Assembly (NCBI GenBank): GCA_963665815.1
Contig: OY762463.1
Span: 1,045,469 to 1,109,468, forward strand
Length of the DNA stretch: 64,000 nt
Reading direction: 5' to 3'
Source: Candidatus Cloacimonadales bacterium
GTDB lineage: Bacteria; Cloacimonadota; Cloacimonadia; Cloacimonadales; JAIOQZ01
Below are positions 9,061-11,913 of the stretch, piece by piece. Position numbers and translations under genes: made by a program. Each line of letters starts with the position of its first letter. The stretch's first letter is position 1. The notes under the pieces were generated by a model. It saw only the letters and a program-made list of their open reading frames with translations. It did not search any database and was not told the DNA's origin.

Positions 9061-9336
9061 AATTTTCTTGACCATTTTCCACTCATGAGCTCAATTTAGT
9101 CATAATATGGAGTAAGGAGACAGGATTGTACGTAGGTAACACAGCTTTAGTTGTCCAGGAAGACCACTACTACCCGTTCGGAATTAGGTTAGTCGGAATG
9201 TCCACCGATACCGGGCAGAATAATAAATTCCTTTACAACAATAAGGAATACGAAAATGAAAATAAGGTACCTCCTATGGTCTTCGAACTGACGTTCTACA
9301 GACTTCGGAGTGGAGACTCTCGCCTACGGCTACGAG
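9061..9336 (+). repeat. 276-bp dispersed direct repeat, copy 1 (cassette head: non-coding leader + SD + TTG + RHS-core-like 5' coding part)
   Basis: Collinear without indels with 12125-12400 at a constant offset of 3064 nt. The match runs from AATTTTCTTGACC.. through ..AATATGGAGTAAGGAGACAGGATTGTA.. to ..CGGCTACGAG, with scattered substitutions. Confidence 0.9.
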
Positions 9337-10055
9337 CTCATTTTTGGAGACTTTCGGGCTATGCCCTGCAAGCTCATTGCTGGATGGCAGTTGATCCAGC
9401 TGATGAGTTTTTTAGCCCTGAAGGTGTCTCTTATGGTTCTCGGATCGGAATCCTACGAACTTCAGAGACGAGACTCTCGCCTTCGGCTACGAGCTTATAT
9501 AATGACCCGGTGAACTTCCTTGATCCGGATGGGGCGGAGCAAACTCCAGCTTACTTAGTTGTAGATATAATGTTGGACTATGTTGAATTAGATGGGAAAC
9601 TAAGTAACTCAGGCGTAATAGCAAAACTAAATGAAGCTGCATCTATTGCAGAGGGTAGATTCAATAGACATAATCCAAATGATTCAGACATACTAAAGGC
9701 AAAATATCTGCATGACGGTAAATTTTTAAGAAGTTGTGCAACAATATCTTCTTCTAACAGTACTATAAAAGGGATAGATACTGGAAAAAAAATAACAGTA
9801 GGAGCTGGGGCTCTTGCAGTCGGAGGAGTCGGTATAAATGCAGCACGAATGGGGGCAAAGCATATGGCACAGCCTTTACTGAATGGTACATATGATCTTA
9901 TGGCTGGAGGAACTGATGTTCTAAGTTTGGGTACAACACTTTTTATAGAAACTCCTCATGTTGACCACAAGGCAATTAAGAAAGATTGGAACTTAAGATA
10001 TAAATATCAAGATTATGACAGAGGAGATGATGGATATGATTTTAATGAACTTTGA
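9126..10055 (+). CDS. orphan RHS-repeat-associated-core C-terminal fragment with variable toxin-like tip
   Basis: TTG start lies 6 nt after AAGGAG. The N-terminus [30 protein letters not shown], then [10 protein letters not shown] and [12 protein letters not shown], match the end of RHS/YD core domains. About 180 unrelated C-terminal residues follow, containing a glycine-zipper-like stretch ([20 protein letters not shown]). In-frame stops lie upstream and no long YD-repeat body is present. The middle of the core region is occupied by GC-rich repeat elements, so the gene may be partly degenerate. Confidence 0.65.
   Translation: [309 protein letters not shown]
9296..9341 (+). repeat. GC-rich 46-nt element, copy A (a degenerate half-copy follows at 9345-9378)
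   Basis: CTACAGACTTCGGAGTGGAGACTCTCGCCTACGGCTACGAGCTCAT. By hand alignment 39/46 positions are identical to copy B. It is followed by TGGAGACTTTCGGGCTATGCCCTGCAAGCTCATT, which repeats its right half in degenerate form. The element is much more GC-rich than the surrounding sequence. Confidence 0.8.
9453..9498 (+). repeat. GC-rich 46-nt element, copy B
   Basis: CTACGAACTTCAGAGACGAGACTCTCGCCTTCGGCTACGAGCTTAT. It sits in a different codon phase of the same ORF than copy A (copy A starts at phase 2, copy B at phase 0). The similarity is therefore at nucleotide level, not protein level. Confidence 0.8.
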
Positions 10056-10085
10056 AAGTTCAATAAATAACAAAAGGAAATATCA

Positions 10086-10979
10086 ATGAGGTACTTACTG
10101 ATTACTATAGTACTTTTTATAGGTACATTTACTCTATATAGTGTTGAACTATTATCCGTTGAACAGTTAAATGAATTTGCGGATTCAATTCGTAGTAAGA
10201 TGGTAGCAAATGATTTTACTGGAATCTGTATGATGGAAAAAGGAATGAGAAACTTTATAACAAATACAGATCAATTATATATGAAGTATGAATCCTTTGA
10301 TGTTCTTGCAAAGTCATTTATCTTGATCAATGAATATAGTAAAGCTAAACAATGCTATAGCGACATAACAAAAATACTATCAGTCACTCAAAATACAGTT
10401 TACTGTAAATATTGGGTAATTGCTAAATTCAAAACAATAATTGCAAATAAAAAGCTTAGTTTTGAAGAAAAGATGAAGGAATTAGAAAGATTTAGAGTTT
10501 CTGATTTTAAGAATCTTAATGTGACATGCTATTATGAAGTTTTAAGTTATATGTTAACTGGATCAAAAATACGAAAGCAATATTTTCTTGACTTGTTTAA
10601 AGACCGAGTCGTTTCTAATGATATCAAAATCAATTTTATGATTTTCTTATCAATAATTGAAATAGATGAAGAAAATAATGATGAATCAATGAAATATTTG
10701 AAAAGAGCAGAAAAATTAATACCAACGATTACAAATTTCAGGAATATATTAGAAATGCAACTCAATTTGGCAAAAACCTTGTTATATGATAGACAACAGA
10801 ATATTGCAGAAAGCAACAAGTATTTATCCAAAGCTATTCAAATTAAATCCTCAATTTCTAACCTAGATAGTATCAATATCTTTAGTTTAATGAAATTTGA
10901 CAACATGATTCCTTATCCTGATAATGTGATAAGGCAACTAGAAAGTATTGAGAGGAGGATAAATGAGCAAAAGAATTAA
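10086..10979 (+). CDS. hypothetical secreted/membrane-anchored all-alpha (TPR-like) protein; candidate immunity protein
   Basis: 297 aa with N-terminal hydrophobic segment MRYLLITIVLFIGTFTLYS. The composition is helical-repeat-like. It lies immediately downstream of the RHS-type tip. Function not recognised. Confidence 0.6.
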   Translation: MRYLLITIVLFIGTFTLYSVELLSVEQLNEFADSIRSKMVANDFTGICMMEKGMRNFITNTDQLYMKYESFDVLAKSFILINEYSKAKQCYSDITKILSVTQNTVYCKYWVIAKFKTIIANKKLSFEEKMKELERFRVSDFKNLNVTCYYEVLSYMLTGSKIRKQYFLDLFKDRVVSNDIKINFMIFLSIIEIDEENNDESMKYLKRAEKLIPTITNFRNILEMQLNLAKTLLYDRQQNIAESNKYLSKAIQIKSSISNLDSINIFSLMKFDNMIPYPDNVIRQLESIERRINEQKN

Positions 10980-11913
10980 GATAAATAGTATCCTTCTGTT
11001 GGTTTTATTAACATTTTGTTCAAGATTTTTTGCATTTGAATATGTGAACTATTATCCTTTGAAGCAAAATTTAACACTTGAAGAGAAAGAGGTGGTAGAA
11101 AATTTCTCTTTCTTGATGAAAGACATATTGAACGACAATTTCGCAATCGCTGGAACAAGCTTATCATTCATTTTCAGTCGTAATCAATTAAAAAATAATC
11201 CATTTGTTACAGAAAATCCTAAAGTCATATTAATTCAATTCAGGGTAATTTATAACATAAGAATTGGAAATTATGAATTGGCTAAACTCTTATTTGATGA
11301 AGTTGAAAAGTCCTTCCAAGAGCCTACTAATGATTTATCAAATGAGTTCTTCGAAGAGCTCAAATTGTATAAGTATTCAATTATGGCTAAACTGGAACCA
11401 GATAGTTTAGAATATTATGCGCGAAAAATCATAGATATTGTTACTCCTAAAGATTTATTCTGCTATACATATCGCTTGAACTGGTTATTTGATAATGGCT
11501 ATTACAATGATTTACAGAAGATTGTAAAAAACTCAAATGATACTTTTGATATAATTAGTAACATAAGGTGTCTTTATGAGCAAAAAAAGTATGATGATAT
11601 TGAAAATTTATTTATTCAGTTGAGTCGCAGTCCTCACAAACAAACTCCCGATCTTTTGCTTTATATTAGTTATATTAAATGCCTTATCGCCTTTAATAAG
11701 GGAAAAATCGACAAATCGATAAAGCTTTTAAAGAAGAATCAAAGAATGTTTAATGAGCTTGAAGTTTATATTAAAACTCATAATTTGAGAGAAAGATTTA
11801 TTGATGAAAGTTTAAGAACACTAGTATTTAATTTTGATGGATTGAATTTCACTTTAACAAATGAGCAGATAATGCAACTGTTGACAATCCAAGAAATGAG
11901 TAAATTAGATTAA
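10963..11913 (+). CDS. hypothetical secreted all-alpha (TPR-like) protein, translationally coupled to the previous gene
   Basis: 316 aa with signal-like N-terminus (INSILLLVLLTFCSRFFA). It overlaps the upstream gene by 17 nt. The composition is helical-repeat-like. Function not recognised. Confidence 0.6.
   Translation: MSKRIKINSILLLVLLTFCSRFFAFEYVNYYPLKQNLTLEEKEVVENFSFLMKDILNDNFAIAGTSLSFIFSRNQLKNNPFVTENPKVILIQFRVIYNIRIGNYELAKLLFDEVEKSFQEPTNDLSNEFFEELKLYKYSIMAKLEPDSLEYYARKIIDIVTPKDLFCYTYRLNWLFDNGYYNDLQKIVKNSNDTFDIISNIRCLYEQKKYDDIENLFIQLSRSPHKQTPDLLLYISYIKCLIAFNKGKIDKSIKLLKKNQRMFNELEVYIKTHNLRERFIDESLRTLVFNFDGLNFTLTNEQIMQLLTIQEMSKLD

Follow-up and report, generated by a model that had tools for sequence, protein, structure and literature searches.

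Leader-bearing RHS core-end cassettes with variable tips and an in-frame palindromic repeat in Candidatus Cloacimonadales

We analyzed a 64-kb window (the whole stretch of DNA under study, 64,000 nucleotides of contig OY762463.1 from a Candidatus Cloacimonadales bacterium) that contains ORF309, an open reading frame (ORF) of 309 amino acids (aa) at 9126..10055 in which a stand-alone RHS core end with a TTG start is joined to a variable tip. Two further genes follow, orf297 (10086..10979) and orf316 (10963..11913); these and the other features below lie on the plus strand unless stated otherwise. Sequence comparisons support the identification of ORF309 as an RHS-type C-terminal cassette of a polymorphic-toxin family. 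Taking all the data together, the locus is, on balance, probably an autonomously transcribed, lineage-specific, shell-less Rhs C-terminal (Rhs-CT)/immunity operon. Its cargo would be exchanged through conserved flanks, and its toxin gene would be decaying under invasion by a repeat. The operon as a whole would be retained, perhaps on account of the exported immunity genes.

A search of 5.8 billion proteins returned 12 relatives of ORF309, all of 178-312 aa and 8 of them encoded on the same 3.96-Mb contig as the window. The relatives have an N-terminal block in common and diverge fully after a DP[DN]G motif. The tips of the 12 family members are mutually unrelated, since no pair fell below E 0.1 in an all-against-all BLASTP comparison. 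Source annotations of the relatives read 'RHS repeat-associated core', and P0011, P0008, and P0002 scored 68.7, 54.8, and 41.7 bits, respectively, against TIGR03696 (Rhs_assc_core), for which the curated cutoff is 32.5 bits. In a scan of one genome per species, 34 loci were found to carry the homologous segment, which closes RHS ORFs of 1100-3200 aa in Bacteroidota, KSB1, Calditrichota, and others, with 887-3197 residues upstream of it. Because the segment ends long RHS ORFs in other phyla, its identity as an RHS core end is sound. Among the paralogs, the P0008 tip has weak similarity to CHAP and the P0002 tip contains an HEVDH motif, as seen by inspection of the sequence. The closest loci of the species-level scan, L001 and L002, both lie in a Candidatus Cloacimonadales metagenome-assembled genome (MAG), and L001 (6390-11796) consists of three tandem cassettes, A, B, and C. 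A preliminary description of the window had proposed an orphan toxin/immunity module. The joining of one core-end block to unrelated tips among the paralogs favors that proposal, but the core end of ORF309 itself turned out to be degenerate, as described below.

The tip of ORF309 (9534..10055) is an ORFan with a Gly/Ala-rich, moderately hydrophobic stretch. Its 173 residues after DPDG show no relation to the tips of the paralogs or to 1.84 billion representative proteins, in agreement with the preliminary description, which had also noted correctly that neither the tip nor the two partner proteins resemble a family that can be named. No match to the tip was found in Pfam, NCBIfam, PADLOC, PHROGs, or the PDB, and an exhaustive phmmer search over the 1.84 billion representatives gave only the tip itself and one spurious repeat match. 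The latter, P0134, was rejected as a repeat protein that aligned ten times to a low-complexity stretch. The glycine zipper that had been ascribed to the tip was not borne out. Its hydrophobic stretch lacks the [GAS]xxxGxxx[GAS] pattern and has a 19-residue hydropathy maximum of 1.28, and the sole match to the pattern in the tip, STIKGIDTG, falls outside this stretch. As first proposed, the tip may target the membrane or the periplasm.

Both partner proteins are predicted to be exported or anchored. Their N-terminal hydrophobic segments, noted previously, reach Kyte-Doolittle 19-residue maxima of 2.02 (orf297) and 1.97 (orf316), and the two ORFs, of 297 and 316 aa, overlap by 17 nucleotides (nt; 10963-10979) as first reported. 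orf297, candidate immunity gene 1, is predicted to be all-helical, as seen by DSSP on a low-confidence AlphaFold2 model. Its scores against TPR families were below gathering (TPR_2, 18.7 vs 27 bits; TPR_8, 18.3 vs 25.7). The single-sequence AlphaFold2 models were too poor for a fold search, with a pLDDT of 33.6 for the tip and 46 for orf297. For orf316, candidate immunity gene 2, there was no family or PDB match. The two proteins are singleton clusters in a 15-billion-protein collection, and scans of viral collections returned no relatives of either. BLASTP gave no support to the idea that orf297, orf316, and a 307-aa partner protein in L001 are paralogs. The GC content was 26-28% in orf297, 26-29% in the partner genes, 38-48% in the toxin ORF, and ~36% in the flanking housekeeping genes. 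The low GC of the partner genes (10086-11913) fits foreign or fast-evolving cargo.

Support for a pairing of tips with the genes behind them comes from the relatives. The tips of L001 cassette B and L002 are 40% identical (E 2e-41), and the 109-aa membrane ORFs behind them are homologous (E 8e-14). Homologous tips paired with homologous downstream ORFs make a toxin/immunity pattern. By position, and by analogy with this co-inheritance in the relatives, orf297 and orf316 may have an immunity role.

ORF309 is preceded by a conserved non-coding leader (9058..9125) that contains TTGACC, a CATAAT -10-like box, and a Shine-Dalgarno (SD) sequence, AAGGAG (9114-9119), six nt before the TTG. The same AAGGAG-N6-TTG start was recovered in the second cassette of the window (12178-12192), as the preliminary description had stated. 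A TGA in frame at 9069-9071, 18 codons before the start of ORF309, likewise agrees with the upstream stops noted there. Homology between cassettes begins abruptly about 66 nt before the TTG, in non-coding DNA, and the peptide in frame upstream of the TTG is unlike RHS. The leader, SD, and TTG are conserved across five cassettes in two genomes. Among these five leader-type cassettes, the 66-nt leader diverges by 9-24%, and codons 2-46 have synonymous differences (pS) of 0.29-0.90 and nonsynonymous differences (pN) of 0.05-0.24. The resulting pN/pS of 0.16-0.36 indicates selection to preserve the N-terminal block at the protein level. Conservation of the leader exceeds that of synonymous sites, which suggests a functional promoter, untranslated region, and start and points to autonomous expression of the cassettes. 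No significant RNA fold was found in the leader, and a scan of a metagenome collection gave zero matches to it.

Codons 1-46 of ORF309 (9126..9263) align with the paralogs as a canonical RHS core-end head. Downstream of the head, the core end contains a GC-rich repeat. A repeat search of the window detected this 78-nt unit at 9264-9341, 9421-9498, and 12328-12405, and its 24-nt core occurs three times, compared with zero occurrences expected by chance. An alignment of the paralogs shows the element to be an insertion relative to the canonical core end, at a position (site 1) that is occupied in seven of the eight paralogs from the same genome. In P0063, from another genome, a tip like that of P0006 is joined to a core end without the element. 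The first copy in ORF309 (9267..9340; covariance model, 103.7 bits) is translated in frame and is followed by a C module (9345..9375), a diverged B-like hairpin unit encoding 10 residues that was recognized by its fold and by a score of 15.1 bits to positions 45-73 of the model. Next are a core-end segment of 13 residues with the first candidate catalytic Asp motif, DPAD (9385..9420), and the second element copy (9424..9497; 92.6 bits), which belongs to another subfamily, is read in another frame than copy 1, and replaces YVYCH between the Asp motifs. The tip boundary segment with DPDG (9499..9533) then follows and is 95% identical to L001 6634-6674.

The element folds as a three-stem hairpin, A, plus a hairpin B. 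Between copies 1 and 2, both partners have changed in five base pairs, and a sixth such pair is seen in L001 cassette B. In an alignment of five copies, drawn from two or three independent lineages, pairing holds in 98.1% of cells and double-sided changes are seen in 6 pairs; 0/500 shuffles reached the observed values and slid controls gave 0. The compensatory signal is clear but thin, as it comes from five sequences. There are six copies in all, plus separate B and C modules, and five of the six fall within a single domain of 100 residues in a single gene family. All six are in the sense orientation, a bias that is not significant given only two or three independent insertion events. The covariance model found the three copies and the C module in the window and nothing further. 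In the relative, it found the two L001 copies on which it had been trained and an untrained, AT-rich, degenerate copy at L002 11296-11368. The latter is followed by a further B module, and both are 3' of an immunity-like gene, outside any core end. No copies were found outside the cassette islands in the window and the 40 kb of the relative that were read, scans of the JGI metagenome and IMG/VR collections did not detect the element, and neither the element nor the leader matched an Rfam family. In L001, the element is bordered by a GTACC...GGTACC direct repeat and has a short terminal inverted repeat (AATAAGGT...AGCTTAT). By analogy with known families, we interpret the element as a modular palindromic repeat of the repetitive extragenic palindromic (REP)/bacterial interspersed mosaic element (BIME)/BOX/Rickettsia palindromic element (RPE) kind that is able to sit in frame in genes. 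The possibilities that it is a tRNA-like gene, a ribozyme, a translational bypass, or a splicing signal were rejected with nothing in their support. For bypass, the in-frame stop of the copy in L001 cassette B was considered, and this stop fits a pseudogene equally well.

The insertions have altered the core end of ORF309 at two sites. Site 1 holds 81 nt instead of the canonical 12 and site 2 holds 79 nt instead of 13. ORF309 also lacks a 14-residue segment that follows the C module in paralogs. Two C modules flank this segment in P0002, whereas P0004 and ORF309 have one module and no segment, which fits a deletion between direct repeats. The 14 residues were thus probably lost by deletion between two direct copies of the C module. 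The Rhs autoprotease has the form DPxG-X18/19-DPxG, with two catalytic Asp residues about 22 residues apart (PMC10684867, PMC8765631). Canonical paralogs have DPAD-X17-DPDG, compared with DPAD-X39-DPDG in ORF309, where element copy 2 sits between the motifs. Both Asp-Pro motifs are kept, and the net insertion between the two catalytic Asp positions is 22 residues. ORF309 had no match to TIGR03696 at E <= 0.1. The RHS part of ORF309 is degenerate, with its frame still open. Of the residues first taken for an 'RHS core end' in this ORF, ~60 come from inserted repeat elements and not from RHS.

Several observations weigh against a decaying toxin gene within an autonomous operon. The 309-codon frame of ORF309 is still open, and the two ORFs that follow it are undamaged. 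Since survival of ORFs like these by chance is negligible at 27-38% GC, either any decay is recent or the copy still works. Most of the seven paralogs with the site-1 element have otherwise intact core ends, and the element may be tolerated at this site rather than damaging. A sigma-70 consensus scan did not flag the candidate promoter in the leader, and gene conversion between the leaders might give the appearance of purifying selection. Neither the tip nor its two partners have homologs, and their toxicity and immunity roles are putative. Lastly, with the 64-kb window scanned, a full-length rhs gene or a separate shell gene elsewhere in the 3.96-Mb genome is possible.

One alternative explanation is that ORF309 is a functional, autonomous mini-Rhs toxin that is translated from the TTG and works without a covalent shell, either in a toxin-antitoxin-like manner in the producer or docked to a separate carrier, with the loops encoded by the element being tolerated. 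The conserved leader, SD, and TTG, the purifying selection on codons 2-46, the three intact ORFs, and the site-1 element held in frame in those seven paralogs are all in its favor, and an orphan Rhs-CT in Salmonella provides a precedent (PMC7043789). On the other hand, ORF309 is missing 14 core residues and fails TIGR03696, and no delivery gene is present in the window. The candidate immunity proteins also look exported, which is a poor fit with neutralization of a cytoplasmic toxin. We consider this explanation unlikely.

Neither the window nor the 10 kb around the L001 and L002 islands contained an RHS body, so the neighboring rhs gene expected of an orphan module is lacking at all three. 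In the window, tblastn matched the two cassette heads only, consistent with the earlier statement that a YD-repeat body is absent. RHS, PAAR, and VgrG were not found by Pfam on the ten largest other ORFs of the window, and no type VI secretion system (T6SS) is present in the window, also as stated before. The islands themselves lie between unrelated housekeeping genes: an EamA transporter gene and a DUF748 gene in the window, cutC and a radical-SAM gene at L001, and gcvP and a gene of unknown function next to flgI at L002. Among the 5.8 billion proteins, none longer than 312 aa had a core end of the ORF309 type. A close full-length partner should have shown up in this search, since the canonical paralog P0009 scored E 3e-17. 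A further search with a profile of the canonical core end gave 3153 matches, and the 120 listed were all of 204 aa or less. The full-length rhs gene that had been proposed as a recombination partner thus has no support, the longest core-end protein among the 5.8 billion being 312 aa.

These results bear on the explanation adopted in the preliminary description, in which the cassette is a silent orphan, a storage module that becomes active only once recombination fuses it to a full-length rhs gene. Orphan rhs-CT/rhsI modules are known from Enterobacteriaceae, with well-documented tandem arrays, and are usually seen as silent spares behind a full-length rhs gene. The core-end homology block common to all the paralogs and the longer RHS remnants in L001 cassette B and in L004, a locus of another Cloacimonadota MAG, would agree with this. 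The absence of a longer protein with this type of core end, the three islands without an RHS body within 10 kb, and the cassettes' own conserved start signals do not. In addition, recombination in the 5' block would drag the damaged core end along with the tip. We regard a silent orphan as quite improbable here.

The 3' side of the unit is conserved as well, and cassettes with different cargo in the window and in L001 and L002 have 3' and intergenic modules in common. An intrinsic terminator (AGCCAGAA...UUCUGGCUUUUUCU; 11926..11960) follows orf316, and another cassette, in L001, ends with the same terminator (87.5% identity between window 11930-11960 and L001 11823-11854). Its hairpin (11926-11955; dG -15.1 kcal/mol, z -5.1) precedes a U-run, which bears out the terminator described earlier. 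It was found by folding and was missed by a consensus promoter/terminator scan. Conserved intergenic modules come next (12008..12121), made up of a tandem repeat of a 19-nt unit (12006-12043) and an extended leader (12093-12121). The shared segments are window 12008-12049 and 12093-12122, with counterparts at L002 9841-9882 and 9753-9782 and at L001 6296-6322. The 19-nt unit, TAAACACCTTCCGAATGGT, occurs twice between the terminator and the second leader, and this stretch is conserved upstream of the L002 leader at 9841-9882.

A second cassette head (12122..12408) consists of a leader, a TTG at 12190, 72 codons, and element copy 3 (12331-12404; covariance model, 98.8 bits). It stops exactly at the end of the element and then runs on into a conserved right flank of the island (12381..12567, with no strand assigned). 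The 180-nt flank at 12381-12562 is 90.7% identical to L002 11381-11562 and is also found at L001 9773-9890. The order in L002 is core end, tip, immunity gene, element, and right flank. This is the order that would be expected ahead of a deletion between two element copies. Together with the break in the second cassette at the element end, it suggests that the remnant head was probably made by such a deletion. The right flank contains a small minus-strand ORF (MVLSQDEQAEFGLIYSIEPDS...), whose C-terminal part is read from the palindromic element in reverse complement. The only family match of this ORF was a weak one, to a PHROG without a known function. Adjoining the right flank is a 192-nt tandem repeat (12589-13353; 3.6 copies, 96% identity). 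Its unit is made up of the last ~57 nt (19 codons plus the stop) of a minus-strand DUF748/AsmA-like gene (13267-15135) and about 135 nt downstream. The repeat may be a trace of integration or duplication that recurred at the 3' end of this gene.

The rearrangement breakpoints exactly at element ends raise the question of a function for the element, as a recombination site that brackets tip-plus-immunity cassettes and allows them to be excised and exchanged, or as a structure in the toxin mRNA that governs its translation or stability. Hairpins kept by compensatory changes, copies both in the core end and 3' of the immunity gene beside the right flank, and the sense orientation of six out of six copies could all be taken this way. 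Yet no recombinase or transposase gene is present in the three islands, and some copies have decayed, with an in-frame stop in L001 cassette B and an AT-rich, degenerate sequence in L002. The GTACC/GGTACC direct repeat and the short terminal inverted repeats are typical of a mobile insertion, and only two or three independent insertions underlie an orientation bias that is not significant. We give little credence to a functional element. Slighter still is the chance of a split RHS system, in which shell-less core and toxin proteins, made from their own conserved promoter, SD, and TTG, would load in trans onto a tip-less shell from a separate gene or onto another carrier, so that one scaffold is armed with many tips, and in which the element would bracket and mobilize tip-plus-immunity cassettes.

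The favored explanation, an autonomous operon with a decaying toxin gene, can be laid out as follows. The locus would be one unit in a small mosaic island of shell-less cassettes. A unit consists of the leader, about 135 residues of the RHS associated core (its plug/autoprotease end), a hypervariable tip, one or two cassette-specific genes, and the terminator. The leader would drive one transcript, ORF309-orf297-orf316, ending at about 11960, and orf297 and orf316 would be candidate immunity functions that act in the envelope. Modules of tip plus immunity genes may be swapped between paralogous cassettes by homologous recombination. Candidate substrates for this are the common blocks observed: the leader and core end on the 5' side, and the terminator and intergenic modules on the 3' side. 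The core end of ORF309 has been colonized twice by the element and once more by a B-like module. ORF309 would then be a decaying toxin gene in an operon that may persist mainly for its immunity genes.

The cassettes of the relatives vary in their makeup. In L001, cassette A is leader-type, lacks the element, and is followed by two ORFs of about 167 aa. In cassette B the RHS remnant is longer, the element copy is interrupted by an in-frame stop, and the 109-aa membrane ORF follows. Cassette C is leader-type with the element and is followed by the 307-aa helical ORF. At L004 1-975, an RHS core-end fragment is directly preceded by the end of a helical-repeat-like ORF (about 277 aa). Large helical partner proteins may recur among cassettes of the phylum Cloacimonadota.

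Elsewhere in the window, an O-methyltransferase gene is apparently split into ORFs at 6240-6527 and 6680-7201, the second of which matches Methyltransf_2 from profile position 56 only. The split (6240-7201) could be a frameshift or a pseudogene. One window protein has a type IX secretion system (T9SS) C-terminal sorting domain (Por_Secre_tail) and another is a C10 peptidase with a FlgD_ig-like C-terminal domain (loci 56298-57986 and 27946-30642). From these domains, the organism probably uses a type IX-like secretion route.

The findings are of interest for several reasons. They describe, in a poorly known phylum, a family of leader-bearing cassettes that are scattered among housekeeping genes and are still under protein-level constraint. 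A shell-less Rhs plug with a toxin raises the question of its use, which might be expression of immunity, a toxin-antitoxin-like pair, or loading in trans. The in-frame repeat bears on how polymorphic toxin loci decay and rearrange, and it provides a clear example from outside Rickettsia of a structured repeat that enters a protein domain in frame and then probably drives deletions. The tip and both partners, having no detectable homologs, are untapped toxin/immunity candidates.

The cassettes can be compared with several known systems. Like the Enterobacteriaceae orphans, they have a truncated gene that starts from the RHS core end, a hypervariable tip after DPxG, one or more cassette-specific downstream genes, and tandem arrangement. 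Unlike those orphans, the cassettes of the window, L001, and L002 are not behind any rhs gene. They also differ in having a dedicated leader, non-coding and conserved beyond the level of synonymous sites, as well as a 3' terminator and intergenic modules common to cassettes with different cargo. Furthermore, no T6SS context is visible, and the candidate immunity proteins, of about 300 aa, appear to be exported. The Salmonella orphan Rhs-CT is reported to be expressed from an internal promoter with a CTG start (PMC7043789), and ORF309 resembles it in its non-ATG start and in a candidate promoter of its own.

Rhs plug autoproteases have Asp pairs such as D1324/D1346 in RhsA and D1141/D1164 in Tse5 (PMC8765631, PMC10684867). 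The canonical paralogs resemble this Rhs_assc_core plug in having DPxx-X17-DPxG and in passing TIGR03696. ORF309, in contrast, fails the HMM, is 14 residues short, has X39 spacing, and has no shell to close. A further comparison is with Tse5-CT, the pore-forming tip of a Pseudomonas Rhs effector (PMC10684867). The tip of ORF309 is likewise Rhs-linked, with a hydrophobic, Gly-rich character and candidate protective proteins predicted to be located in the envelope. This likeness is a lead only, as the two have no sequence similarity and the tip's hydrophobic stretch is weak (Kyte-Doolittle 1.28) and without a zipper motif.

For the repeat, the modular families for comparison are the Rickettsia palindromic elements, pneumococcal BOX, and enterobacterial BIME/REP. 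Similar to these, the window element is short, GC-rich, hairpin-forming, and modular (A, B, and the B-like C) and is found in frame within coding sequence. It likewise has a short terminal inverted repeat, a direct repeat resembling a target-site duplication, and rearrangement breakpoints. It differs from them in being known from two related genomes only and in having no Rfam similarity. Orphan Rhs tips with immunity genes downstream have been described before, as have internal promoters with starts other than ATG. What is new in these cassettes is a dedicated conserved leader, their presence in three islands without a neighboring rhs gene, and a structured repeat carried in frame in the plug domain.

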